Virus record (IMG/VR): IMGVR_UViG_2671180643_000016
Location: 1 to 11,733 of that record
Reading direction: 5' to 3' (one strand)
Source of the DNA: a virus
Taxonomy: Duplodnaviria; Heunggongvirae; Uroviricota; Caudoviricetes
DNA length: 11,733 bases
Shown here: one piece after another, positions 1 to 11,733 of the stretch
Layout of the letters: each line of letters opens with the position of its first letter
Numbering within the stretch: the first letter of the stretch is position 1
Notes under the pieces: model-generated
Seen by the model: the letters and a program-made list of their open reading frames with translations, nothing else
Told to the model about the DNA's origin: nothing
Database searches by the model: none
Translations under genes and position numbers: made by a program

Positions 1-1257
1 GTGCTTACCGATACAAAATTAAAAAACCTCAAGCCGCAGGACAAACTGTACAAGGTCTCCGATCGTGACGGGCTGTATGTAGCTGTGCTTACGTCAGGCA
101 CGGTCTCGTTTCGCTATGACTACCGTATCAACGGTCGCCGCGAAACACTGGTAATCGGGCAGTATGGGCGTGACGGTATCAGCCTGGCAGAAGCGCGAGA
201 AGAACTGATTGCTGCAAAGAAGCTGCTTAAAGCAGGCCAGTCACCGGCTGCGGCTAAACGTGACGGTATCAAAAAGATTCGTGGTGCCGAGACGTTTGCG
301 GTACATACCGACAGTTATATGAAACACGTCATCCTGGCTGACAGTACCCGCGCAATGAAACAGGCGGTGATCGACCGTGACATACTTCCGGTTCTTGGCA
401 ATAAAATGATGGCTGAAATTACCACATCGATGGTTCGTGATTTGTGTGACCGGATTGTCGAACGCGGTGGCCGGGCAACAGCAGTGCAGGCCAGGGAGAT
501 CATCAGTAGCGTATACCGTCACGCCAATGACCGTGGTCATGGTTTGTTTAATCCTGCGGCTGACATTAAACCTTCGTCTATCGCCATATTTAAACCACGA
601 GAGCGAACACTGACACCAGAAGAAACTGGCCTGTTCTTCCGCACGCTGGATGCCATTGGTGCTATGGGCACTATGAAAATGGCTTTAAAACTGGTGCTTA
701 TCACTATGGTTCGTAAGGGCGAATTCACCAATGCAACGTGGGATGAAATAGATTTTAAAAAATGGACATGGACAATTCCTCCAGACCGCATGAAGGGAAG
801 CCGGGCGCACGTTATTTACCTGCCTAAACAGGCACAGGATATATTGGTCGGGTTGCAGATGTGCGCTGGTGGAAGTGAATATCTGGTTCCTGGTCGTTAC
901 AATTTCTGGAAGCCATTATCTAATGCCGCGCTGAACTCTCTGATCGACAGAACGGTGAAAATAATAAATGAAGATGGTGAGCATATTCAGGACTTCACTG
1001 TACATGATATGCGCCGTACAGCCAGTACGTTGTTGCATGAGGCTGGTTATCCTTCAGACTGGATTGAAAAGGCTCTGGCACATGAGCAGAAAGGTGTGCG
1101 CGCCGTATATAACAAAGCGGAATACGCCAGACAGCGCGCCTACATGTTGCAGCAGTGGGCCGATATGATTGATTCCTGGATTAACGGGGAGCATACGGAT
1201 CTGATTCCGTTCTCCCCGTCGAAGTTTGAGAAGTGGATGGAAGACAGTAATAAATAA
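1..1257 (+). CDS. int: Tyrosine recombinase / phage integrase (P4-type); may be 5'-truncated by the window edge (ORF opens with GTG at position 1)
   Basis: 418-aa ORF with N-terminal arm-binding-like region (LTDTKLKNLKP...), catalytic-domain motifs TMVRKGE, HDMRRTASTLL (H-x-x-R) and a C-terminal Tyr region (VRAVYNKAEY). Stop TAA at 1255-1257. Confidence 0.9.
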   Translation: MLTDTKLKNLKPQDKLYKVSDRDGLYVAVLTSGTVSFRYDYRINGRRETLVIGQYGRDGISLAEAREELIAAKKLLKAGQSPAAAKRDGIKKIRGAETFAVHTDSYMKHVILADSTRAMKQAVIDRDILPVLGNKMMAEITTSMVRDLCDRIVERGGRATAVQAREIISSVYRHANDRGHGLFNPAADIKPSSIAIFKPRERTLTPEETGLFFRTLDAIGAMGTMKMALKLVLITMVRKGEFTNATWDEIDFKKWTWTIPPDRMKGSRAHVIYLPKQAQDILVGLQMCAGGSEYLVPGRYNFWKPLSNAALNSLIDRTVKIINEDGEHIQDFTVHDMRRTASTLLHEAGYPSDWIEKALAHEQKGVRAVYNKAEYARQRAYMLQQWADMIDSWINGEHTDLIPFSPSKFEKWMEDSNK

Positions 1258-1259
1258 TT

Positions 1260-1919
1260 CTATCCTTCTTGGATTTTGATAAGCGTCAGATTTCCGCAGA
1301 ACACTGCCACTGTGTCGATGTACATCTGGTTTGCATATACCAGTGGGTGATGTGCTGGCGTATGACCGAAGATGAACAGATCGGCACCGGTTATCTCCGA
1401 GACAATACCGTCCTGCGCGTCGCTAATCCGCTCACGATTCCATATCACCATTTCTTCTGGTACTGGCTTATTGAATGCGTATTCGTTGTGCGGGTAGTCT
1501 GCGTGGCAGATGACGACCTTCTTATTGCCGGTAACCAGTTCGATAATCATCGGGAGGTTGGTAATCTTTGGCAGAAGGTATTTGAGTTGCACATCCTGCT
1601 CAGAATCAAGTTGGTGCCACCATCCACCGCCGTTTGACATCCAATGTCCGAAACTTCCGCCGTTGACCAGTGCATCCAGCATCATCTGCTCATGGTTGCC
1701 ACGAACAGCTCGGAACCACGGCATAGCAATCAAATCCAGGCATTCGACGTTTTCAGCGCCGCGGTCAACAAGGTCACCAACGGAAATAAGCAAATCGCGC
1801 GCCGGGTCGAATGAAACTTTGTCGAGTTCGTTCATCAGCAGCGTGTAGCACCCATGCAGATCGCCGACGACGAAGATATTGCACCAGTCAGCGCCATTGA
1901 TGCGTTGATATAGGTTCAT
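1260..1919 (-). CDS. Ser/Thr protein phosphatase, lambda PPase-like metallophosphoesterase
   Basis: Metallophosphoesterase motifs GDLHG, GDLVDRG, GNHE and a C-terminal GHTP; the translation aligns along its length with my recollection of lambda phosphatase. Start ATG 1919 overlaps the upstream stop (ATGA); SD-like GGGAG upstream. The ORF-track start at 2039 is an upstream extension. Confidence 0.85.
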
Positions 1920-2566
1920 GCAGCACGCTCCCGCCCCTGGTTGTCTGTTGGTGACAGCGGAGCATTGCTGAATGCATTTGTTAATCTGGCAATATCCAAC
2001 GCGTATCCAGGGTGTAGTTGCACTGCCGGGTCTTCGCACTGATTACCCCAAACATCGAAACCATGAGACGACTGGCGAGCGAACAGTTCAATGCGAGAAA
2101 CATCGCCTAACAATTGCACAAGTTTTTCACGAACGATATCTGGTTTTCTTGAATGCTCAAGCCGCGGTGCGGTAAATGACTGAACGATCCCTGCATTAAT
2201 GCGCGTAGGTAGTTTTCCCTTTACCGCAAACAGGCAATCTTCACTATTGGCGCGAGTCATGTGCCCCATACCCATAACCAGTTTATCTGGTTGTCGACTA
2301 CCACATTTTATCCACGTGAAGCCCTTCATGGTCATCAGACGGAATCCCCAGGCTTCAACAACTTTTAGCGCTTCGAGTGGTTGTGTTGGCACCCACCACA
2401 TGGCCAACAGACAGTTTTCATCGGCCAAATCCCACACAGGAAGGCGGCAGATATCCAGCACACTCATAACCGGATATTTAAAACCGGCACCGCGATTACC
2501 ATCTGCGGCTTTGTCACGATGTGTCCAAGGCGGATCTGCATAGATTAGTGTGTATTTCTTAGTCAT
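1916..2566 (-). CDS. DNA N6-adenine methyltransferase, MT-A70-like (orphan, phage Dam-type)
   Basis: 216-aa ORF with the catalytic DPPW motif near the N-terminus ([10 protein letters not shown]), typical of MT-A70/beta-class amino-methyltransferases. SD-like GGGGTGG upstream of ATG 2566. No adjacent restriction endonuclease candidate. Confidence 0.75.
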
Positions 2567-2825
2567 AAACCACCCCGCAACATCCTATACCGCTATAGTC
2601 TCCACGGCGAAGGCCGTTACCTTTTGTGATACATTGGTCCCTGCGAACCGCGATCCTTGCACGCTCAACATCACCAGAAGCAACATCCATACACTGAAGC
2701 CAAAGGTGAGCGGCAATGCGGAACTGCCCCTTTTTCTCTCTTTCAATCGCGCGTTTTTCGATCTCTATCGCCGCAGGAGTAACGGCGACAATCTTTGACG
2801 GACTGCGCATTGAAACCTTATTCAT
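2559..2825 (-). CDS. Hypothetical protein (88 aa from ATG 2825; the ORF extends to 2858 with a GTG start)
   Basis: Open frame between xis and the methyltransferase in the same orientation, with its stop overlapping the methyltransferase start by 8 nt. No recognisable motifs and a weak RBS. Confidence 0.35.
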   Translation of the reverse strand: MNKVSMRSPSKIVAVTPAAIEIEKRAIEREKKGQFRIAAHLWLQCMDVASGDVERARIAVRRDQCITKGNGLRRGDYSGIGCCGVVYD

Positions 2826-2967
2826 GTGATATTTTTCAAGTCGGCTTAACTTTCTCACTTAATCCAACCCTCTCTGAAAATTAATGCCAGCAGATAAAGC
2901 CATGCTGAAACAGAGGCCAGGAATAAGTACCATCCTGACCATTTGATCCAGTGCCTTAGCAGCGCAC

Positions 2968-3216
2968 TCATGCAGCGTTGCTCACGGGACGATATACACG
3001 TTGCTGAACAGGAGGTTTTTTACCCTGGAACTCTGCCGGGCTTGCTGCCTGACGTTCATCAAGCCAACGCTCAACTTCGTCACGGTTCCATGCGCAGCGT
3101 TTGTCAGTGATATACCAGCGTTTAGGAAATTCCCCTGCGCGCTCCATACGGTCGATAGTGCTCCATGACAGTGGCACCACCGCCAGGAGTTCCTTCTTAC
3201 CTAATGCACCTTTCAT
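2968..3216 (-). CDS. xis: AlpA-family excisionase / DNA-binding regulator
   Basis: 82-aa ORF with an AlpA/Xis-type HTH signature (LSWSTIDRMERAGEFPKRWYITDKRCAWNRDEVERWL). SD GAGAGG upstream of ATG 3216. Position matches lambdoid xis (between recombination genes and the integration end). Confidence 0.75.
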   Translation of the reverse strand: MKGALGKKELLAVVPLSWSTIDRMERAGEFPKRWYITDKRCAWNRDEVERWLDERQAASPAEFQGKKPPVQQRVYRPVSNAA

Positions 3217-3265
3217 AAATACCTCTCTTGGTTGCAGTGCGGCGCGCGTGGCGCCGCGGTGGTGG

Positions 3266-4207
3266 TTACATAGATGTTTCGTTTAATTCTTCCCGACGAA
3301 CGCTGTAAACGTCGGTGGCTTTTGCCAGCAGTTCGTCATCATCTGAAAGTTTTTGTGCAATGTATTTGTAAGCCTTATCCAGTTCGGAGACAGTGCTGTA
3401 ATTCATCGCTGCGCTGGTAAAGGCCATCAGCATTTCTTCTGGATCACGGCTATCCGCTTTACGCGTTTGCTCATCAGGCTTTTTCACTGTTTTAGCGTTG
3501 ATCAGACTATTCATTCCCGCAGCCGTAGTTGTTTGCGGAGTAATGTCTCGCTCAACGCGCGGTGCCGTTTCCTGTAATTCGTCAGGTGTATAGACGCCCA
3601 TGATTACGTCAGGACAGTGCAAGCGAGACCAGCGTTTTGTCGCAAGGTATGCGAGTTGTTGTTTCGGATCGCTGGCCCAAAGTGTGGAGTTTCTTACCTG
3701 TGCCTGAGACAGCATTAACTCGAGCACTCGAGGTTGATCCTCTCCCTTCATGGTTGCCCATACGCGAACACCGCAGCCTTCTTCGTCTTTTATAGTCCAG
3801 CCTGGTGCGATATACGGATTGCCGTTTTTGGATGTTTTCTCAACAAACTTACCGATCACGCGTTCCCACGGCCCGAACCACTCGTAGTTGATGCGATCTT
3901 TTGTTGGCGACATTGTTGAGATAACTGCGTTTACTAATTGGGCTTCATAACCTAGCGTGCCGTTCACAACATGGGTTTTCTGAGCCACGGCAAACGGGTT
4001 CATTCCCCACTGCGCAGCCTGCATTGCCACGGCCATGCAATCAGCTGGTTTCCCGGCGAGGTGCGCCGGTACCGTTACGCGGCTTTGCGCCATTACCTCG
4101 GCGAATTTCATCAGTTGGTTCAAGCCGTCTGGGCTGAAAATAGTTGCAGCAGTGCCAGCGATTGCTGTGTCTACTGGTGCGTTGATGTTTGCGATGTTGT
4201 TGCTCAT
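3266..4207 (-). CDS. bet: Single-strand annealing protein, Red-beta/Bet-like (RecT/Red-beta superfamily)
   Basis: 313-aa ORF. Several segments resemble lambda Bet as I recall it (QWGMNPF vs QYGLNPW; LWASDPKQQL vs PWQSHPKRML; shared ERDITP). Start ATG overlaps the exonuclease stop (ATGA at 4204-4207); SD AGGA upstream. Confidence 0.75.
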   Translation of the reverse strand: MSNNIANINAPVDTAIAGTAATIFSPDGLNQLMKFAEVMAQSRVTVPAHLAGKPADCMAVAMQAAQWGMNPFAVAQKTHVVNGTLGYEAQLVNAVISTMSPTKDRINYEWFGPWERVIGKFVEKTSKNGNPYIAPGWTIKDEEGCGVRVWATMKGEDQPRVLELMLSQAQVRNSTLWASDPKQQLAYLATKRWSRLHCPDVIMGVYTPDELQETAPRVERDITPQTTTAAGMNSLINAKTVKKPDEQTRKADSRDPEEMLMAFTSAAMNYSTVSELDKAYKYIAQKLSDDDELLAKATDVYSVRREELNETSM

Positions 4208-5025
4208 ATGTACATATCCTGTTTACGTGCCCAGTCAGGGCGTTTAATAATTTCCACGCCACCCCATTCATCATTGATGCGGCATTCGTGATAGGTATTC
4301 AGATCCCGGCGGAACAGAGCGTGCCCGGTATCGACATCCTTCGCATCCAGCTCGAACACGCGTACCGGATACCGACCACAATCAATGCTTTCGCTCACGG
4401 CAAGAAAGAAAAAACCATGCGGCTGACCAGTAACCCTCATTGCGCCTTCACGGTACATTGCGTCCTGCACGTGGTAGCGGAATTCCTCGATGTGGCGAGC
4501 AAAACGATCCATATCTGCAACCTTTTTCACGTCGACGATTACGTTGTGCTCGTTCAGCCATTTGTCTGGACGAATTCGGCACAACTCACCCGTCTCTTCA
4601 TCGTTCCAGTACATTGATGCTTCGCAGTAACCAGGTGCTTCCAGCATCCAGCGTGCCGCCGGGTGAGCCATTGCGCTATCACGCATCAGCTCCAGTTTTC
4701 GCCACTGCTCTGCATCAAGTACCGAAATCCCCATATCCGCTACATCACGAATAAATGCCTCTTCGTCAGCTTTACCTTGTTTTGTCCGACGATCGAATTT
4801 CGGTGAAACGATGAAGCGTTTGTCAAACTCTCTAGGTTCCAGAAGCAGACAGTGCAGAGCAGTACCCATATCCAGTGCAGACTTATTCTCTTCGTCTTCC
4901 GGAGCGGCCTTCACCCATTTCAGAAGGGCAGGGTTCTTAGCCACCATATCTAGCTGCGACTTACTCACGCCGTCACCGGCGTGGTAGTCCTCGTTGCTGA
5001 TATCGAAATAAATTCCCGGATTCAT
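4204..5025 (-). CDS. RecE-like exonuclease (PD-(D/E)XK fold), partner of the annealase
   Basis: 273-aa ORF with a GIYFDISNEDYH N-terminal signature, a D-x-K core (VIVDVKKV) followed by FRYHVQDAMYREG and a C-terminal YHEC, consistent with the RecE C-terminal nuclease-domain family. Start overlaps the upstream stop (ATGA at 5022-5025). Confidence 0.75.
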   Translation of the reverse strand: MNPGIYFDISNEDYHAGDGVSKSQLDMVAKNPALLKWVKAAPEDEENKSALDMGTALHCLLLEPREFDKRFIVSPKFDRRTKQGKADEEAFIRDVADMGISVLDAEQWRKLELMRDSAMAHPAARWMLEAPGYCEASMYWNDEETGELCRIRPDKWLNEHNVIVDVKKVADMDRFARHIEEFRYHVQDAMYREGAMRVTGQPHGFFFLAVSESIDCGRYPVRVFELDAKDVDTGHALFRRDLNTYHECRINDEWGGVEIIKRPDWARKQDMYI

Positions 5026-5321
5026 GCCGCGTCCCTCTGCCCATCAATCTGATCAGCCAGATCCCAGCGGGCGATAATTGCCATTGCCTCGCGCCGGTAG
5101 GCATCCATTAGTTCTTCGAACTCAGGGCTGTCTTTAGCGGCCTCCAGTACTTCCTGGCGAACGCCTTTAACTGTTACAACGTCGAAAGTTGATGCCAGTT
5201 GATGAAGCCGGATACTCTCAATCAGTTCAACTTGTCGGTCATATAGCTGTTCTGACAGGCGGTAGTCCTTGTCGAATGCCAGCATGATTTTTTGAAGATT
5301 TTTCTGCTGATTAACGTTCAT
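5022..5321 (-). CDS. Hypothetical acidic helical protein (99 aa from ATG 5321)
   Basis: Strong SD GGGAGGG immediately upstream of ATG 5321; the ORF-track start at 5336 is an upstream extension. Sits directly upstream of the exonuclease in the leftward operon. Function unknown; a Gam/Abc-like nuclease inhibitor is only a positional guess. Confidence 0.5.
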   Translation of the reverse strand: MNVNQQKNLQKIMLAFDKDYRLSEQLYDRQVELIESIRLHQLASTFDVVTVKGVRQEVLEAAKDSPEFEELMDAYRREAMAIIARWDLADQIDGQRDAA

Positions 5322-5323
5322 TA

Positions 5324-5476
5324 TCAGCCCTCCCATATCTCGTTATCGTTGGCCACATCGCGAGCTTCTTTGCTGACGAAAGCCCACTTAATGCCTTCCT
5401 GTAAGGTGCGGAACTTCCAGCTCATGAATCCGCATGCAGTAACGCAGTACCAACCGTTGATGATTTTCCACTGCAT
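5324..5476 (-). CDS. Small protein (50 aa), first gene of the leftward operon; absent from the ORF track because it is under 60 aa
   Basis: Hand translation from ATG 5476: MQWKIINGWYCVTACGFMSWKFRTLQEGIKWAFVSKEARDVANDNEIWEG, stop TGA 5324-5326. SD GAGGT 8 nt upstream. Its stop and the next start are arranged as TGATAATGA. Hydrophobic N-terminal half. Confidence 0.4.
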   Translation of the reverse strand: MQWKIINGWYCVTACGFMSWKFRTLQEGIKWAFVSKEARDVANDNEIWEG

Positions 5477-5494
5477 AATTTGTTACCTCGGTCT

Positions 5495-5573
5495 GTTACC
5501 GTTGAGGTAATGATTATGCGTATTTGGTTTGATGTCAATAGATATGAGTTAAAAAAATTACCCATAAGGTAAT
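5495..5573 (-). promoter_or_regulatory. pL-like leftward promoter with two flanking 17-bp operator palindromes
   Basis: Minus-strand -35 TTGACA (5533-5538) with a -10-like CATAAT/TAATCA 14-16 bp downstream. Flanked by GTTACCGTTGAGGTAAT (5495-5511) and ATTACCCATAAGGTAAT (5557-5573); operator centres 62 bp apart. Confidence 0.55.
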
Positions 5574-5580
5574 CTTGATG

Positions 5581-5608
5581 GCAATAAAAAAGCCGCCATG
5601 AGGCGGCT
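5581..5608 (-). terminator. Rho-independent terminator downstream of the repressor gene
   Basis: On the minus strand: stem AGCCGCC, loop UCAU, stem GGCGGCU, followed by UUUUUUAUU; lies 22 bp downstream of the repressor stop (5630-5632). Confidence 0.6.
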
Positions 5609-5629
5609 TACTTACTGAAAAATATGATT

Positions 5630-6214
5630 TTATTGTTTGTTTTTTTCGTTCTGGTTGATGACAAATTCAATGTAACTTTCGATCTTTGCTTTCTCGGGTT
5701 CGGGTAACAATGCGTAGCGCGAGCGGTCATAGTTGATGGTCGCAGGGTCGTGCGGGTGAATCAGTAATTCATAGCCGTGACGCCCGAATGCGGATGCAAC
5801 ATTCTCCAGGGTGGAAATGGAAACGCTGACCTCATTGTTTAACAGGCGGCTGATTGTTACCTGGGCGACGCCGGATGCGCGGTGAAGTTTTCCCTGCGTT
5901 GAAAGGTCGCGGCTTTCGCTCATCCAGCGTTCCAGGTTGTGAGCCGCCAGCTGACCAATGTCGCTTGGGCCGACAGGCTGAAAACCTTCCTGAGAAAGCG
6001 AGCGATCGATATCAAGCCAGTTACGGGGTTTATTGGCGGCAGCTTCAATTTTTCGCGCAACCTGGTCGCCGATAACCTTCTTGCCAAGAGCCCAGCGGTT
6101 TACCAGATTTGCCTGAGTTCCAAGTTTTTCTGCCATCCGCGTCTGAACACCATTGAATTCACGGTCGATCAAGTCGTTGAGATTTTGCCTGCGGACGTCC
6201 TGGATACTTTTCAT
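5630..6214 (-). CDS. Prophage repressor, XRE-type HTH, with a second HTH-like segment and no S24 peptidase domain
   Basis: 194-aa ORF. N-terminal HTH (QTRMAEKLGTQANLVNRWALGKK) resembles 434/P22-type repressors; C-terminal half has another HTH-like stretch (VAQVTISRLLNNEVSVSISTLENVASAFG) and no Ser-Lys/GDSM autocleavage signature. Divergent from the Cro-like gene across an operator region. Confidence 0.7.
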   Translation of the reverse strand: MKSIQDVRRQNLNDLIDREFNGVQTRMAEKLGTQANLVNRWALGKKVIGDQVARKIEAAANKPRNWLDIDRSLSQEGFQPVGPSDIGQLAAHNLERWMSESRDLSTQGKLHRASGVAQVTISRLLNNEVSVSISTLENVASAFGRHGYELLIHPHDPATINYDRSRYALLPEPEKAKIESYIEFVINQNEKNKQ

Positions 6215-6268
6215 TTTCTGGAAAATCGCCTCATATATGAATCAGTAGATGATTCAATTTAAAGCAAT

Positions 6269-6333
6269 ATTACCCAACAGGTAAATGCACCCCATAGGTA
6301 ACTATCCTTGATTTTTGTTACCTTATGGGTGAA
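6269..6333. promoter_or_regulatory. OR-like tripartite operator region with divergent promoters
   Basis: Three 17-bp sites of the ATTACC-N5-GGTAAT family: ATTACCCAACAGGTAAA (6269-6285), weaker TGCACCCCATAGGTAAC (6286-6302), GTTACCTTATGGGTGAA (6317-6333). Candidate rightward promoter -35 TTGTTA (6315-6320), 17-bp spacer, -10 TATTAT (6338-6343). Confidence 0.55.
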
Positions 6334-6368
6334 TATTTATTATCTGAAATAAATATCAGGCAATAGCT

Positions 6369-6599
6369 ATGAGCGATAACGGACATTTCGATTTCAAAAA
6401 GCACTGGCTTGCACTTACTCCGGATGAGCGTGAAGCCTTCGCACAGGAAGCCGGAACGACGAGTCACTATATCCAGACTCACTTAACAGGTAAGCGCAAA
6501 ATGCCAGGTAAGGTATTGATGAATGGGCTTTTTAAAGCCTGTAAAACAAGACAATGGCTGCGCTCAAAAGCAGAACTGGCATACTTCTTCTACTCATGA
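6369..6599 (+). CDS. Cro-like small DNA-binding regulator (putative)
   Basis: 76-aa ORF divergent from the repressor, directly downstream of the operators, with a possible HTH (REAFAQEAGTTSHYIQTHL). AGG 8 nt upstream of the ATG; followed by a terminator. Confidence 0.55.
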   Translation: MSDNGHFDFKKHWLALTPDEREAFAQEAGTTSHYIQTHLTGKRKMPGKVLMNGLFKACKTRQWLRSKAELAYFFYS

Positions 6600-6620
6600 T
6601 ATCCAGCCACAACCCTCTGT

Positions 6621-6644
6621 AGACCGCCATCCGGCGGTCTTTTC
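6621..6644 (+). terminator. Rho-independent terminator after the Cro-like gene (tR1-like position)
   Basis: Stem AGACCGCC (6621-6628), loop ATCC, stem GGCGGTCT (6633-6640), then TTTT. Confidence 0.6.
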
Positions 6645-6749
6645 ATATCTATTCGCACCTCAAAGGTAATAAAAAACCAAATGTGGTTGATCTTTTTTTT
6701 GTGTCAGCACAAAATGACCGTAATCCCAATACTAATAACAGGGCTTACC

Positions 6750-6950
6750 ATGGAAATCATTACACGTATTGATGCCGCAAAGCGCGGACTTAAACGCTAC
6801 TACACCGGAAAACAATGTAAGCACGGACATGACAGTGAACGCTGGGTTTACAACGGGCACTGTGTTGAGTGCACCATGGAATCAAACCGTCGCATCAGGG
6901 CAGAGATTAAGCAGATCATGATTAATTCCTCCCCACAACACTCAAGCTGA
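6750..6950 (+). CDS. Hypothetical Cys/His-rich small protein (66 aa), possible zinc-binding, in the cII position
   Basis: ATG 6750 with AGGG 8 nt upstream; motif C-K-H-G-H ... H-C-V-E-C suggests a zinc ribbon. The ORF-track start at 6681 lacks an RBS. Confidence 0.45.
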   Translation: MEIITRIDAAKRGLKRYYTGKQCKHGHDSERWVYNGHCVECTMESNRRIRAEIKQIMINSSPQHSS

Positions 6951-6965
6951 TAGCGGAGATTAATC

Positions 6966-7781
6966 ATGAGCAGACATGCAACAGATTGGGCTTGGGAGAC
7001 AGATCCAGGCAGCTCATCATTAAAGCTCATACTGCTCTCGATGGCTGACAGAGCCGATGAATATAACCTCTGCTACCCCAGCATAGAACGCCTCGTTAAA
7101 GACACTTGCCTGAATAAAAAAACCGTGCAGGCCGGGCTTATATCGCTCATGAAAATGGGGCTTATTTCAGATACCGGAGAGAGAAAGGGAGCGACAAAAA
7201 GAGTGCGGGTTTTCTCTCTTAATATAACCAAAAACGGGAACATTAAAGGCAACCTAGATGGGTGTAATGAACCCGAAAACGGTAATGTTCCCGAAAACGG
7301 GAATATACCCAAAAACGGGATGTTGAATGATCCCAAAAACGGGATGTTGAATGATCCCAAAAACGGGATCCAGAACCAGTCATATAACCAGTCATTTAAC
7401 CAAGAGAGGGAGAGCAGGACAAAAACCGGGGATTCTGTGCCTCATGACCCCGGCGCAAACAACGCCGTGATGAATAACTTTGTTCCTCCTGGTGGGCCAG
7501 GGCAATTAGGCAAATTTGTCATGCATGAACAATGGCAGCCATCAGATGACTTTCTTCGGAAAAGCTCATTGCAGGGGATCTACCTGGACAGTCTGCCAAC
7601 GGCACAGGAACTTGCAGAGTTCAGAATTTACTGGATGGCTGAGGGTAAGGCATACCATCAGGCACAGTGGGAGCAGAAGCTGGCAAGGCGGCTGCAGATT
7701 AGCAGACAGAAGCAATCAACATTACCTGATAACAACGTTCCGCACTGGAACAGCCCTGAAGCATGGGAGGATTTCTTGTGA
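6966..7781 (+). CDS. Replication initiation protein (lambda O functional analogue; N-terminal winged-helix-like, C-terminal DnaT-like)
   Basis: 271-aa ORF. N-terminal HTH-like region (LKLILLSMADRADEYNLCYPSIERLVKDTCLNKKTVQAGLISLMKMGLI), repetitive linker encoded by the iterons, C-terminal FRIYWMAEGKAYHQAQWEQKLARRL. Immediately upstream of the P-like gene with overlapping stop/start. Confidence 0.75.
   Translation: MSRHATDWAWETDPGSSSLKLILLSMADRADEYNLCYPSIERLVKDTCLNKKTVQAGLISLMKMGLISDTGERKGATKRVRVFSLNITKNGNIKGNLDGCNEPENGNVPENGNIPKNGMLNDPKNGMLNDPKNGIQNQSYNQSFNQERESRTKTGDSVPHDPGANNAVMNNFVPPGGPGQLGKFVMHEQWQPSDDFLRKSSLQGIYLDSLPTAQELAEFRIYWMAEGKAYHQAQWEQKLARRLQISRQKQSTLPDNNVPHWNSPEAWEDFL
7227..7369. 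repeat. Iteron array inside the replication initiator gene (putative ori)
   Basis: Direct repeats with core CC(C)(A/G)AAAACGG(G/T)A at 7227-7241, 7271-7286, 7289-7304, 7307-7321, 7331-7345, 7355-7369, spaced 18, 18, 24 and 24 bp. Includes an exact 24-bp tandem duplication GATGTTGAATGATCCCAAAAACGG (7319-7342 and 7343-7366). Confidence 0.6.
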
Positions 7782-8563
7782 ACAACGTTTTTACCGCGAT
7801 ACAAAACCGTGACGGAGAAGCCCTTTCTCGCATGTCAGGTTATGATCATCAGTACGTCAACAATGACAATGTGGTGAACATGTCAGCAGAGAGGCTTGTT
7901 GATGCCCTTTTCAAACAGCTGAAACAACTGTTTCCGGCGGCAGTGGTAACCAACCTGAAGACGCCAGAGCAGGAAGTCGCTGCAAAACAGCAGTGGATTG
8001 CTGCGTTTGCCGAAGGGGGGATCCGAACCCGTGAACAGGTTTCTGCTGGTATGCGCCACGCCCGCGCCAGTGAATCTCCGTTCTGGCCGTCGCCAGGGCA
8101 ATTTATCAAGTGGTGCAAAGACAGCAAGATGGTTCTTGGCGTCACCATTGACGATGTGATGGCGGAGTTTCACCGGTACAGCAAGGAAAAAAGTTTATAT
8201 CCTGGTGGTCCCGAAAGATTCCCGTGGCGGCATCCGGTTATGTACTGGGTCGTATGTGATACCCGCCGTGCAATGTATCAGCGCCAGCTTAGCGAGATTG
8301 AGGTTGAGAAACACGCGCGCAGGTTGCTCGATGATTGGGCGAAAAAGGTGGCTTCCGGACAGCAGATACCCGATCCGGTGATCAGCATACAGGCAAAGCC
8401 AGAACCCATGAGTACACCTCCGGACACAGGGAGAGACGTTTACCATCCACCAGGGCGAAGTTTCGGGTGCATGCCTAACGCCGCCACCCTGGGGGGAATA
8501 ACACCTGCGCAGTGGCTGATGGAGGAATACAGGCGAGGAAAGGCAGCAGGATTTATCAAGTAA
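7778..8563 (+). CDS. P: Replication protein P-like (DnaB helicase loader)
   Basis: Clear resemblance to lambda P as I recall it (QQWIAAFAEGGIRTREQVSAGMRHARASESPFWPSPGQFIKWC vs lambda RQWVLAFRENGITTMEQVNAGMRVARRQNRPFLPSPGQFVAWC). Preferred start GTG 7778 with SD GGGAGG 8 nt upstream, overlapping the upstream stop (GTGA); alternative ATG 7763 lacks an SD. Confidence 0.85.
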   Translation: MNNVFTAIQNRDGEALSRMSGYDHQYVNNDNVVNMSAERLVDALFKQLKQLFPAAVVTNLKTPEQEVAAKQQWIAAFAEGGIRTREQVSAGMRHARASESPFWPSPGQFIKWCKDSKMVLGVTIDDVMAEFHRYSKEKSLYPGGPERFPWRHPVMYWVVCDTRRAMYQRQLSEIEVEKHARRLLDDWAKKVASGQQIPDPVISIQAKPEPMSTPPDTGRDVYHPPGRSFGCMPNAATLGGITPAQWLMEEYRRGKAAGFIK

Positions 8564-8599
8564 TACCAGCGCGATAGCGCATTTTTTTACGTCTATATG

Positions 8600-8678
8600 A
8601 TTACCTTATAGGTAATAAAATATTCTAATTTCTATTGATTTTATGTCTTATGTGGTTTTTAATTACCTAAGGGGTAAA
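8600..8678 (+). promoter_or_regulatory. Operator-flanked promoter upstream of the DUF1064-like gene (same architecture as pL)
   Basis: ATTACCTTATAGGTAAT (8600-8616; perfect palindrome) and ATTACCTAAGGGGTAAA (8662-8678) flank -35 TTGATT (8635-8640), 17-bp spacer, -10 TTTAAT (8658-8663). Operator centres are 62 bp apart, as at pL. Confidence 0.55.
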
Positions 8679-8680
8679 TC

Positions 8681-9025
8681 ATGAGAAAACAGATACAGGC
8701 TCTTGGTCGACTCAAAACAGGCCAGATGAACAAAACAGAATCTGCGTATTGCCAGCACCTTGAGCTGCGTAAACGTGCAGGAGAAATCGTCTGGTATCGA
8801 TTTGAGGGTATCAAGTTGCGGTTAGCTGACAACACGTTCTATACGCCCGATTTTGCTGTGATGCTCGCCACCGGCGAGATGGAACTGCACGAAGTGAAAG
8901 GTTTCTGGACCGACGACGCCAGGGTGAAAACCAAAGTCGCCGCAGATCAGTATCCGTTCCGAATCATCGGGGTAACGGTTAAGCCAAAGAAAGCAGGTGG
9001 TGGCTGGAACATCGAAGAGTTCTGA
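8681..9025 (+). CDS. DUF1064-like phage protein, probable PD-(D/E)XK nuclease fold
   Basis: 114-aa ORF with D...E-x-K-like arrangement (TPDFAV ... ELHEVKG). SD AAGGGG upstream of ATG 8681. Family assignment is from memory. Confidence 0.6.
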   Translation: MRKQIQALGRLKTGQMNKTESAYCQHLELRKRAGEIVWYRFEGIKLRLADNTFYTPDFAVMLATGEMELHEVKGFWTDDARVKTKVAADQYPFRIIGVTVKPKKAGGGWNIEEF

Positions 9026-9086
9026 ATCGACGATCTTTTTAGTTATCAATGTAATCAATAAGTTATGTGGATAAGCGAGGGTAAAG

Positions 9087-9719
9087 ATGGAAAGTAATAT
9101 CAAAGGGTTAGTTGCCGCCGGGCATGAGATGGCTTCGGAACTGAAAGCAGAATGTGGTGCCGTTGATATGCGCAGTGTGGCAAAGCTGATCAGCGATTTG
9201 GCAACGCAACTGGAAGTGCAACTGGTGCGTGCTAATGCGCTGGCCGAAGACCACCAGAGAGCGATTGAGTCAATTAAGCAGGCTGATTCGGCTGTTAAGT
9301 TGGCACACGAGAAGTTTTCGGCGCTGGCGGCGGAGAATGCGGGGCTGAAACACGCAATGGCCGTAACTCTTGAGCATGTGTCGGTCACGGATGCAGGGCA
9401 GGCTGGTGTTGCTGCAATGATTATCAACGATGCCCTGCACCACAGCGAAACTCCAGCCACCGATGCTTTCCTGGCTGAAATTCGTGCGGAAGCACGCAAC
9501 GAGGGGATTAACTATACCGCAAGCCGTCTTGCTGCTGCTTTCAATCACGGATTTATCAATAAGTCTTTACGTGAAGTTTTCGACGTTACACGCATGATTC
9601 TGTCAGCAAAAGAAGAGTTAGCTAATGAATCGCATCCGATTGATGGCCTGTCCGGTGAATATGCAGAGAAATCCCTTGAAGAATGGGCGGAACGGCTTCG
9701 CAAAGGAGGCAGCCAGTGA
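9087..9719 (+). CDS. Hypothetical protein (210 aa), Ala/Leu/Glu-rich, predicted helical
   Basis: SD GAGGG 7 nt upstream of ATG 9087; stop TGA overlaps the GTG start of the downstream methyltransferase. No recognisable catalytic motifs. Confidence 0.55.
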   Translation: MESNIKGLVAAGHEMASELKAECGAVDMRSVAKLISDLATQLEVQLVRANALAEDHQRAIESIKQADSAVKLAHEKFSALAAENAGLKHAMAVTLEHVSVTDAGQAGVAAMIINDALHHSETPATDAFLAEIRAEARNEGINYTASRLAAAFNHGFINKSLREVFDVTRMILSAKEELANESHPIDGLSGEYAEKSLEEWAERLRKGGSQ

Positions 9720-10189
9720 CTGGACATGCAGCAATCCTCGACATGTGCTGTGGCAGTCGCATGTTCTGGTTCGATAAGAATGACGACCGGGCGATATTTA
9801 GCGATATCAGAAAGGAAGAGCACACATTGTGTGATGGACGACGCCTGATTATCAGTCCTGATCTGATAGCTGATTTTCGTGCACTACCATTTGCAGACGC
9901 ATCTTTTTCGATGGTTATATTCGACCCTCCGCATCTTGAGCGTGTTGGTGATAACGCCTGGATGGGAAAGAAATATGGACGGCTGAATAAAGATACCTGG
10001 CGTGATGATTTGCGGCAGGGATTTAAAGAAGCCTTTCGTGTGTTGCGTCCATCCGGAGTTCTGATTTTTAAATGGAATGAAACGCAAATACCTGTTCGCC
10101 AGATATTGGTACTGACCGACAGAAAACCTGTTATCGGTCAACGAACAGGAAAAAACGATAAAACCCACTGGATTATTTTTATGAAATAG
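9716..10189 (+). CDS. Small DNA amino-methyltransferase (phage Dam-like, putative N6-adenine)
   Basis: AdoMet-binding-like motif ILDMCCGSRMF followed by the catalytic-type motif FDPPH. Start GTG 9716 with SD AGGAGG 7 nt upstream, overlapping the upstream stop (GTGA). The ORF-track start at 9683 has no RBS. Confidence 0.6.
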   Translation: MTGHAAILDMCCGSRMFWFDKNDDRAIFSDIRKEEHTLCDGRRLIISPDLIADFRALPFADASFSMVIFDPPHLERVGDNAWMGKKYGRLNKDTWRDDLRQGFKEAFRVLRPSGVLIFKWNETQIPVRQILVLTDRKPVIGQRTGKNDKTHWIIFMK

Positions 10190-10335
10190 GCATCCAGTGA
10201 GTAGGTTCGTAAGGTTACAGATACGTATATCTGAATAATTAAATTCAGTTCTGTAAATAAAATTTAATCCTTAACCGGAGGGATTCCTGCACCCTCAGAA
10301 CATCAGGATACCGCCCGAAAGGGCGGTAATGAAAA

Positions 10336-10803
10336 ATGGCTGAATTAACCAAATGGCTACAAAACACGATTACCGGAATTGAAACGGTAGTAGACGATAA
10401 ATCGTTTGTATGTGATGAAATAGTATTCAAAATCGATGTGGTTAAAAACGTACTTACCGCATTTAAAGTCGCGCTGGTATCGCTGGAAGCCGAACCGGTG
10501 ACATGGCGATATCGCTACGTGAGAAAAGGCGTTACGAACTTTCAGGAGAAGCCGTGGGTTGGTGACTGGAAATATGTACCGACAAAAGAGAATTGCAACG
10601 ACAGGCCGAACTATGAAATTCAGGCGTTATTCACGGCCCAGCCTGTGCCACTGACACCCGAAGGATTGATTAAAGCGGTGCGCTTCTATGAACAGGTTAA
10701 GAGTGAAAATCCGCCAGTCGAAACCGGAGCATGGAAAGACGCTGTTGACTGGGTGCTCAAAGAGGCTTGTCAGGCTGTAAACATTGGCATCAAAGGAGAG
10801 TGA
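10336..10803 (+). CDS. Hypothetical phage protein (155 aa) sharing an N-terminal domain with the 10999 gene
   Basis: N-terminus LTKWLQNTITGIE...NVLTAFKVALVSLEA is paralogous to LTKEWLQNTITSIE...NMLTALKIALASLAA in the downstream 244-aa protein. Confidence 0.55.
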   Translation: MAELTKWLQNTITGIETVVDDKSFVCDEIVFKIDVVKNVLTAFKVALVSLEAEPVTWRYRYVRKGVTNFQEKPWVGDWKYVPTKENCNDRPNYEIQALFTAQPVPLTPEGLIKAVRFYEQVKSENPPVETGAWKDAVDWVLKEACQAVNIGIKGE

Positions 10804-10804
10804 G

Positions 10805-10996
10805 ATGAACGGACAAATATCAATTGTTCGACCGGGAGCATGTGACGATCGCGAGATACGAATGATTATTCGTCTGGCGATGGGGAAAACAATAACAGCT
10901 CTCATTACTCCTGAAAATCTCGCATTAGCATTAACAGGAAAGTCAGACTTGCCAGTAGAGCTAAAGCTGCGAAATGTTGAGATTAAGGTGAAATAG
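10805..10996 (+). CDS. Hypothetical small protein (63 aa)
   Basis: ATG 10805 with SD AGGAG 8 nt upstream; positioned 1 nt after the upstream stop and 2 nt before the next start. Confidence 0.4.
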   Translation: MNGQISIVRPGACDDREIRMIIRLAMGKTITALITPENLALALTGKSDLPVELKLRNVEIKVK

Positions 10997-10998
10997 TT

Positions 10999-11733
10999 AT
11001 GAATACTCTTACCAAAGAATGGTTACAGAACACGATTACCAGCATTGAGTCAGCACGGGATGAAATACCGTTCGGACTCGATGAAGATCAAAACAACATG
11101 CTTACCGCATTAAAAATTGCACTGGCATCACTGGCAGCAGTATCGGATGAACGAGCAGCCTATGAATTATTTATGGAGAAGCGTTTCGGGGAATCTGTAG
11201 ATCGCCGTAGGGCAAAAAATGGCGATAGAGAATACATGGCATGGGATATGGCGCTTGGCTGGATTATCTGGTGTCACCGCGCCGCCATGCTTCAGGGTAG
11301 CCAACCTGTAAGCCAAACTTACAACTTGCCAGAATTAATCGAAGGCATGGAAGTTTCCATTGATATAAGCACTTGTGATGCTGATTTAGGTAATCGCTAT
11401 TTCGGCACCGTCACCGAAGCGTTAGAACTTGATACAGCCAAGAATGGTTACATCCTCTTGGTTCAGGACGCAGAGCCAAACTTCGATGTAAATGGCAACT
11501 CTCCGGGAACTCCGGATAGTTGGATAAGCTGTAGTGATCGAATGCCTGAAAAGGGCCAGAACGTGCTTATTTCGGTGAATTTCGATAGCTCTCTGGTTGA
11601 ACCGCTAATATGCTCCGCACGCTATACCGGAAGCACCTTTCGGCGCGGAGATGCAACGATTAAGCCGGGTAATGGTATTGAGCAAGCAACTCACTGGATG
11701 CCGCTACCGGAACCGCCGCAGGAGGTGAAGTGA
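10999..11733 (+). CDS. Phage protein with paralogous N-terminal domain and DUF551-like C-terminal domain
   Basis: C-terminal DSWISCSDRMPEKGQNVLISV ... ATHWMPLPEPP resembles the DUF551 signature as I recall it; N-terminal about 45 aa paralogous to the 10336 gene. Stop TGA 11731-11733. Confidence 0.6.
   Translation: MNTLTKEWLQNTITSIESARDEIPFGLDEDQNNMLTALKIALASLAAVSDERAAYELFMEKRFGESVDRRRAKNGDREYMAWDMALGWIIWCHRAAMLQGSQPVSQTYNLPELIEGMEVSIDISTCDADLGNRYFGTVTEALELDTAKNGYILLVQDAEPNFDVNGNSPGTPDSWISCSDRMPEKGQNVLISVNFDSSLVEPLICSARYTGSTFRRGDATIKPGNGIEQATHWMPLPEPPQEVK

Follow-up and report, generated by a model that had tools for sequence, protein, structure and literature searches.

Does the short reading frame that opens the leftward operon of a tailed-phage genome encode a protein, and if it does, is that protein an antiterminator of the lambda N kind, a small membrane protein, or something else? 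The question is raised by an 11,733-nucleotide stretch of DNA (IMG/VR record IMGVR_UViG_2671180643_000016, positions 1 to 11,733), referred to here as the window, in which an open reading frame (ORF) of 50 amino acids lies on the minus strand at 5324-5476. The conservation of this ORF among related phages shows that it truly encodes a protein, and that it is the ortholog in E. coli of epsilon15 gp37 and PhiV10p39. The ORF is the first cistron of a repressor-controlled early-left operon, and we consider it probable that its product is a small soluble partner-binding factor belonging to the immunity module.

The window itself is readily placed. Around the ORF, 1.8 kb match the Escherichia phages phiV10, TL-2011b, ZX5 and PAS61 at 96-97% identity; for Enterobacter phage Tyrion the figure is about 79%. 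Of 5426 complete E. coli genomes, 565 carry prophages that are 95-99.9% identical to the region around the ORF. From these phage and prophage identities the window is therefore assigned as the integrase-to-replication segment of an epsilon15/phiV10-type (Uetakevirus) E. coli prophage. The elements of the ORF are as follows.

5324..5476, minus strand: the 50-residue ORF including its stop codon, ATG at 5476-5474 and TGA at 5326-5324; protein MQWKIINGWYCVTACGFMSWKFRTLQEGIKWAFVSKEARDVANDNEIWEG
5485..5489, minus strand: Shine-Dalgarno (SD) sequence GAGGT, 8 nt 5' of the ATG at 5476; a purine run is likewise placed in relatives
5319..5334, minus strand: coupling junction to the next gene, GGC TGA TA ATG AAC, with a gap of 2 nt between the TGA and the ATG (5321-5319)

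An earlier note on the window, made from its letters alone, had described a 50-residue ORF with a strong ribosome-binding site, first after a pL-like promoter, whose stop is tightly linked to the next start. All of this is found as described: GAGGT precedes the ATG, the gap to the next start is 2 nt with the downstream SD inside the ORF, and the ORF is the first cistron after a repressor-controlled leftward promoter. The note had also called the ORF unlisted, which is true of the first-stage ORF track but not of public annotation, where it appears in phiV10, epsilon15, SPC32H and as a RefSeq coding sequence. It is the ortholog of PhiV10p39, epsilon15 gp37, SPC32H_040 and WP_001198620.1, all of which carry hypothetical or function-less annotations, and the exact protein is present on at least 1000 contigs. 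The PHROG 898 profile matches it over its full length (E = 1.9e-38, residues 1-50 on positions 1-50 of 50). It is an ordinary early phage gene, small and conserved, that has been publicly annotated since the genomes of epsilon15 and phiV10, so that finding it is not new.

The window holds 134 ORFs of at least 30 amino acids, and an ORF of 50 amino acids is by itself not beyond chance. The evidence for coding comes from comparison. Over codons 1-38 the ratio of nonsynonymous to synonymous substitution (dN/dS) is 0.02-0.5 among seven phages from four host genera. Over the first 17 codons of the seven phages the proportion of synonymous differences (pS) is 0.31 and that of nonsynonymous differences (pN) 0.02, and residues 1-17 are almost invariant. 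The 80 IMG/VR loci were chosen for 100% protein identity, so that the synonymous-only polymorphism among them is no independent test. The ATG and the SD-like purine run are conserved in relatives, and the frame is intact at 46-51 amino acids in Hafnia, Serratia, Kluyvera and other Enterobacterales. The earlier note had held that lack of conservation, or frameshifts in related prophages, would speak against the gene; the frame is kept as far as Serratia and only C-terminal residues shift frame.

This shift comes from an 8-nt indel near the 3' end, as a result of which the tail is read in different frames between lineages. The conserved core of the protein consists of residues 1-38, while the tail of residues 39-50 is variable and overlaps the SD of the next gene, GGGAGGG (5334-5328), which lies within the 3' end of the ORF. 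The DNA under the variable tail is conserved because of this SD, and from the frame shift between lineages it follows that the constrained part of the protein is approximately residues 1-38. Frameshifted C-termini are also seen in the singleton variants P0007, P0012, P0024 and P0027-P0029, and an E. coli variant of 59 amino acids, P0001, carries an internal duplication of nine residues (WYCVTACGF twice) over predicted strand 2 and the following loop. P0001 and the frameshifted singletons are possibly pseudogenes or assembly errors.

That the locus is no gene, or is a gene on the opposite strand, is extremely improbable. The opposite strand is annotated in the record of phage Tyrion (L004 2405-2617, BI095_gp39), which has an antisense shadow ORF in place of the gp37 homologue. 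An antisense frame that shares the wobble positions is indeed open in close relatives, and dN/dS alone cannot identify the coding strand, because the third codon positions of the ORF coincide with those of the antisense shadow ORF. In the Serratia-type loci, however, the sense frame is intact at 50-51 amino acids and all three antisense frames carry 1-6 stops. Further, the antisense frame lacks a conserved start and would extend into promoter sequence, whereas the sense ORF has a conserved SD and ATG and follows a promoter. The strand of the gene is thus assigned from the distant loci together with the conservation of SD and start, and the Tyrion BI095_gp39 annotation looks like a mis-annotation because the antisense frames are broken in distant relatives.

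The junction with the next gene is also conserved. At every locus examined, the stop and the next start overlap (ATGA or GTGA) or are at most 4 nt apart, and this coupling is maintained whether the next gene is gp36-like, a 348-amino-acid PHROG 1376 protein or a 550-amino-acid RecE-like exonuclease. The retention of the overlap or near-overlap whatever gene comes next, and the position of a short ORF right at the head of a long operon, would fit a starter cistron, whose translation and not its product matters, loading ribosomes for the next gene and shielding the 5' end of the operon from Rho. The strong purifying selection on amino acids described above, near-invariant residues 1-17 with pS far above pN, makes this very doubtful. 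A folded model is also predicted for the product, and a pure leader would not keep 38 residues across genera.

The ORF is preceded by a compact control region.

5510..5538, minus strand: pL-like sigma-70 promoter, -35 TTGACA at 5538-5533, 17-nt spacer, -10 AATCAT at 5515-5510
5558..5572: operator O1, TTACCTTATGGGTAA, an inverted repeat 5' of the -35 that aligns with the site annotated as 'repressor; lysogeny' in epsilon15
5496..5510: operator O2, TTACCTCAACGGTAA, overlapping the -10 end and the start region, directly upstream of the SD of the ORF
5590..5609, minus strand: intrinsic terminator belonging to rep, AAGCCGCC-TCAT-GGCGGCTT with a T run after it, between the repressor gene and the pL-like promoter
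5630..6214, minus strand: repressor with two helix-turn-helix motifs, SPC32H/epsilon15 Rep type, 99.5% identical to the phiV10 and ZX5 repressor

The pL-like promoter that the earlier note placed 5' of the ORF is confirmed; with 10 of 12 matches it is the top promoter match of the window, and the TTGAC of its -35 is invariant among nine aligned phages. It is bracketed by two perfect TTACC-N5-GGTAA inverted repeats, O1 and O2, that align with the annotated repressor sites of epsilon15, and in nearly all relatives examined an operator adjoins the SD of the 50-residue gene. The ZX5 repressor, nearly identical to that of the window, shuts off lytic transcription experimentally (PMC9782041). Transcription would start near 5504-5502, giving a leader of approximately 27 nt.

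Two forms of the leader are seen. The leader of about 27 nt with two operators is found in the E. coli (window 5477-5510), Enterobacter, Pseudocitrobacter and Erwinia forms. The Salmonella, Klebsiella, Citrobacter and Scandinavium forms have a leader extended by 65-80 nt, a small hairpin, and a third operator that adjoins the SD (compared at L003 2390-2500, L005 2390-2500 and L016-L020); in the first three of these the hairpin reads CCAC..GTGG and a T run comes after it. The two forms seem to differ by a deletion or insertion between repeats of the operator. Within 5483-5510 on the minus strand, the SD region (GAGGUAA) is perfectly complementary to UUACCUC, which consists of the left half of O2 and two more bases. 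Transcripts that start upstream of 5510 would sequester the SD in a 7-bp stem; the proposed start lies inside this segment.

What kind of protein is made from the ORF? The product has a mass of 5.9 kDa and a pI of 6.1, with five Trp, two Arg and four Lys, and its basic residues are unclustered. The earlier note saw a hydrophobic N-terminal half and suggested a Kil-like small membrane or division-targeting protein. The half is mildly hydrophobic but not of transmembrane grade, as the maximal Kyte-Doolittle mean over 19 residues is 0.57. In distant homologues the N-terminal half contains D, E, K or H, and both cysteines are replaced; Cys15 is Ser in many members and the lipobox-like VTAC is not conserved. 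A transmembrane helix is ruled out by the hydropathy, the charged N-terminal residues of distant members and the beta-sheet predicted there, and the proposal of a small membrane protein is not supported. A lipoprotein signal or a zinc site is likewise ruled out, as Cys11 and Cys15 are not conserved.

AlphaFold was run on a 37-sequence alignment and gave a mean predicted local confidence (pLDDT) of 76.9, with strands at residues 2-6, 9-14 and 18-22 and a helix at 25-48. The protein is thus predicted to be a soluble domain of approximately 6 kDa, in which a three-stranded antiparallel sheet (2-22), rich in conserved aromatic residues according to the model, would be packed on a C-terminal helix (25-48).

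The Kil-like alternative holds that the protein is made early from pL and kills the host or blocks its division by acting on FtsZ or on some other component of the division machinery or the envelope, perhaps while in the membrane. Lambda Kil, Rac KilR and the DicB-type inhibitors are likewise small proteins of the early-left operon encoded upstream of exonuclease or annealase genes, and the map position of our ORF resembles that of lambda kil and Rac kilR, small early-left ORFs upstream of recombination genes. The high conservation across genera would fit a conserved host target, and the N-terminal half is rich in aromatic residues. However, the protein has no transmembrane-grade segment, distant members have charged N-terminal residues and have lost the Cys, and the N-terminal half is predicted to be beta-sheet, so that membrane association is unsupported. 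Furthermore, no Kil family is found among the Pfam matches of any of the 37 members at E <= 10. Kil-like toxicity without a membrane anchor appears unlikely.

Known families give little guidance beyond this. Scans of the protein and all 37 members with the Pfam, NCBIfam and PADLOC models were uninformative, the only matches being weak ones to DUF2985, Phage_zn_bind_5 and Sharpin_PH that occur in a minority of the members, at a best E of about 1e-3. There is no match at E <= 1 among the PADLOC defence models, and a profile search of PDB sequences gave chance matches only (mucolipin-2, E = 0.24). An exhaustive hidden Markov model search of 1.84 billion representatives returned 19 matches, nearly all short proteins of the same family, with no link to a known family. 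The accessions of the protein and PHROG 898 are not mentioned in any paper found, and the titles and abstracts of the Uetakevirus papers listed give no sign that they treat the gene.

One possible resemblance may be mentioned. The predicted three-strand sheet with a C-terminal helix may be akin to the integrase arm-type/AP2 fold (Pfam Arm-DNA-bind_1, Arm-DNA-bind_3 and AP2), and the hairpin motif NGWYCV...G..SWKF is similar to NNGYYCY of the lambda Int arm-binding domain and to DGLYVAV..SG..SFRY of P4-type integrases, with the common pattern NG-aromatic-Y-x-V ... G ... S-aromatic-x-aromatic. On this basis the protein could be a stand-alone beta-sheet DNA-binding domain, a small regulator or recombination accessory that binds phage DNA, with the operators, the att arms or recombination intermediates as candidate targets. 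The alignments are weak. Against an Arm-DNA-bind_3 profile of about 110 sequences, hhalign gives a probability of 4.6% (P = 0.009, 17 columns), and the observed score is reached in 3 of 200 column shuffles; against the N-terminus of lambda Int the probability is 11% over only 7 columns, and across the arm-type comparisons it ranges from 1 to 11%. No arm-type domain of Pfam matches the family. Arm-type and AP2 domains also have an extra hairpin and conserved basic residues that are missing in the 50-residue protein, and the latter is not fused to a recombinase. The resemblance is marginal at the level of sequence, a lead rather than family membership, and we regard both the DNA-binding role and these targets as rather unlikely.

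A relationship to lambda CIII was also tried. CIII is likewise a protein of about 50 residues from an early-left gene and starts like our protein with MQ-aromatic-x-I...GW. It was rejected, as hhalign gives a probability of 0.65% over 3 columns and Pfam Lambda_CIII does not match.

Is it then an N-type antiterminator? In lambda, N follows the leftward early promoter as its first cistron, beside the immunity repressor, and our ORF shares this map position with lambda N (as well as P22 gp24 and HK022 Nun) and is co-directional with the adjoining repressor. The likeness ends there. The window protein is half the size of lambda N, is not basic, lacks an Arg-rich motif, is predicted to be folded and has no sequence similarity to it. 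Lambda N has 13 Arg and a pI of 11. The statement of the earlier note that the protein does not look like lambda N is therefore borne out: it has two Arg and a pI of 6.1, is predicted to be folded and not disordered, and has no match to an N family in Pfam, PHROG or NCBIfam. Nor does any other window ORF scanned match an antiterminator family, in line with the note's view that no N analogue is apparent.

The RNA gives the same picture. The note had proposed a search of the leader by folding and comparative alignment; the window leader does not fold significantly (z = -1.55) and contains no nut site. A boxA pattern with one mismatch allowed has 2 matches in the whole window against 8.7 expected, none of them near a leader. 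Rfam gave nothing relevant in the window and three relatives, and no intrinsic terminator is predicted in the left operon, from 5500 to 1260 on the minus strand. The claim that the leader lacks boxA and boxB is thus correct for the window, with its leader of about 27 nt, but does not extend to the whole phage group.

Serratia-type relatives carry in their leftward leader an exact rrn-type boxA, TGCTCTTTAACAA (in L015 the variant CGCTCTTTAAAAA), and 17 nt after it a conserved hairpin, CACCGC-GATGAT-GCGGTG, together forming a nut-like site. It is common to fifteen IMG/VR contigs of approximately 10-44 kb. Each locus has a single boxA, and 5 kb of the rightward side contain no other. The loci of boxA and hairpin are:

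L011, 4883-4945
L012, 4607-4670
L015, 4631-4690
L102-L116

The order in these relatives is boxA, hairpin, cargo slot, operator and gp37 homologue. The cargo slot contains at least seven alternative ORFs, most of which start 104-105 nt after boxA; they encode proteins of 60, 61, 107 and 177 amino acids and one of 270-280 amino acids that is ParB-like by eye, among others. The cargo-slot loci are:

L012, 4713-4925
L015, 4737-4919
L116, 4245-5087
L104, L109, L110 and L111

The 70-residue cargo ORF of L012 starts MNAAQRRKAYRKHPK, is Arg-rich and looks N-like at first sight, without a family match. As a conserved N analogue it was rejected, since it is only one of the at least seven alternative cargo genes in the slot.

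On the rightward side, a hairpin resembling a terminator, AGACCGCC-ATCC-GGCGGTCT and then TTTTC, is found at 6621-6640 on the plus strand. The cro-like gene (6369-6599) ends approximately 20 nt before it, the phiV10 annotation lists the hairpin as a terminator, and no boxA is nearby. Two further hits of the terminator scan were false positives, due to a tandem 24-bp repeat at 7316-7359 in the DnaT-like replication initiator gene that yields a repeated NGMLNDPK peptide.

These observations bear on whether the protein replaces N functionally, as a structured factor that is not Arg-rich and modifies RNA polymerase or Nus factors, with read-through for example after the cro-like gene. The map position of lambda N, the absence of another antiterminator family among the scanned ORFs, the rrn-type boxA and hairpin in the equivalent leader upstream of the Serratia-type homologue, and the hairpin at 6621-6640 would all suit such a factor. 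However, the window has neither boxA nor boxB, its left operon lacks a predicted intrinsic terminator, the relatives have a single boxA per locus and none rightward, and the 50-residue protein lacks an RNA-binding signature. The variable cargo between boxA and homologue also means that the boxA is explainable by host Nus-factor antitermination alone. The nut-like element of some Serratia-type lineages can thus be explained by host Nus factors and does not make the 50-residue protein an N analogue, and we find a functional replacement of N very unlikely.

Both word-indexed and exhaustive profile searches confine the family to Enterobacterales, with all intact members of 46-51 amino acids, in Escherichia, Salmonella, Klebsiella, Enterobacter, Citrobacter, Raoultella, Kluyvera, Scandinavium, Hafnia, Serratia and Erwinia. 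PHROG 898 is matched by the Serratia-type homologues as well (E = 2.8e-15 and 8.2e-10). In the phage collection, 36 records contain the 50-residue gene and 36 a repressor homologue, with identical host breakdown. The gene lies downstream of an SPC32H-type repressor and TTACC-N5-GGTAA operators and upstream of exonuclease and RecT. Between genera, the core of the protein is 82-89% identical, Rep 43-78%, gp36 47-54%, and exonuclease and RecT down to 16-23%; thus neither the repressor nor any other early protein compared is as well conserved as the core. In epsilon15, exonuclease and RecT are replaced by non-orthologous genes.

The comparison with the epsilon15 gp37 group (PhiV10p39, SPC32H_040) is straightforward. 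The window protein is 100% identical to that of phiV10 and 76-82% identical to those of epsilon15 and Tyrion, and it likewise follows the repressor with its operators and is coupled to the next gene in the same manner. The epsilon15 leader is longer, with a third operator and a small hairpin, whereas the window has a short leader with two operators; otherwise nothing material differs.

Because of the co-occurrence with the repressor, the core conservation, the varying next gene and the operator adjoining the SD, the gene probably travels with the immunity/regulatory module and not with the recombination module. It can even be speculated that it is a dedicated part of a non-canonical Uetakevirus Rep switch, either as a commitment factor keeping Rep off the operators or as a structured transcription-elongation factor, not Arg-rich, that would act together with the boxA-type site of the Serratia relatives. 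This fits because of the equal record counts with Rep, the operator adjoining the SD and the conservation above the repressor, though we give it only a slim chance. If true, such a Rep-switch component would be a new class of small regulator.

We suggest the following course of events for the reading that we prefer, a first-expressed accessory factor of the immunity module. When the SPC32H-type repressor leaves O1 and O2, RNA polymerase would start approximately 27 nt upstream of the ATG, and the ORF would be translated from its own GAGGT site as the first protein of the left operon on derepression. Ribosomes that finish the ORF would arrive 2 nt from the next start, and translation of the two genes would be coupled. 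The product may fold as a small soluble sheet-plus-helix domain and act stoichiometrically, binding a partner that is conserved either across enterobacterial hosts or across these phages. It would then be an immediate-early accessory or host-modulating factor, neither an N-type antiterminator nor a membrane protein.

Several points weigh against this proposal. Expression of the ORF is something that we infer from its surroundings, and the term 'protein-binding accessory factor' is itself a broad inference. The alignment behind the fold is shallow (effective number of sequences, Neff, about 2.6), and a 15-sequence alignment had given a different, low-confidence helical hairpin (pLDDT 54.6), which was discarded. 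Pfam, NCBIfam, PADLOC and PDB sequences hold no informative match for the protein. To these are added the antisense frame that is open in close relatives and its coinciding third codon positions, discussed above.

The gene order around the ORF agrees with annotated relatives. On the minus strand, repressor, terminator and promoter/operators are followed by the 50-residue ORF, a 99-residue ORF, a PD-(D/E)XK exonuclease and RecT, and after RecT by an AlpA/Xis-like protein, a 38-residue membrane protein, PerC, a methylase and a phosphatase. The integrase lies at the far end of the window on the plus strand, and rightward of the repressor are the cro-like gene, a terminator and O/P-like replication genes. 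The nearest cistrons of the left operon, together with the AlpA-family gene, are:

5022..5321, minus strand: second cistron, a 99-residue homologue of epsilon15 gp36, PHROG 856 (function-less family)
4204-5025, minus strand: PD-(D/E)XK exonuclease
3266-4207, minus strand: RecT
2968-3216, minus strand: AlpA-family protein of the left operon, usually called excisionase

The 99-residue second cistron has no family match and no match to a defence model. It lies immediately 5' of exonuclease/RecT, a position occupied in lambda and P22 by RecBCD inhibitors. The gp36-type cistron is absent or swapped for other genes (PHROG 1376, PHROG 3486) in some relatives. The exonuclease and RecT of the window (3266-5025) share only 16% and 23% identity with their epsilon15 counterparts (L003 2954-4885), a non-orthologous replacement, while the adjoining 50-residue gene is 76% identical, so that there is sharp mosaicism inside the operon. 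Between recT and the AlpA-like gene, at 3239-3257 on the minus strand, lies a GC-rich hairpin without a U tract, GCGGCGC-CACGC-GCGCCGC; an epsilon15 stem-loop at the same intergenic position is annotated as 'transcriptional pausing'. At least one protein named AlpA, from Pseudomonas aeruginosa, acts as an antiterminator, and the AlpA-family gene at 2968-3216 is a candidate if the phage encodes an antitermination factor.

What is added here to the annotated gene is its coding status, its conservation above that of the repressor, its co-occurrence with the SPC32H-type repressor across one set of phage records, and a product that is predicted to be soluble and is not N-like. Prophages of this kind are found in approximately one in ten complete E. 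coli genomes, as well as in Salmonella, Klebsiella, Enterobacter, Citrobacter and Serratia. No new kind of system is shown; the link to the repressor and the exceptional conservation make the gene a reasonable target for functional study, and a function for the first-expressed gene would help to understand the induction of this prophage family.

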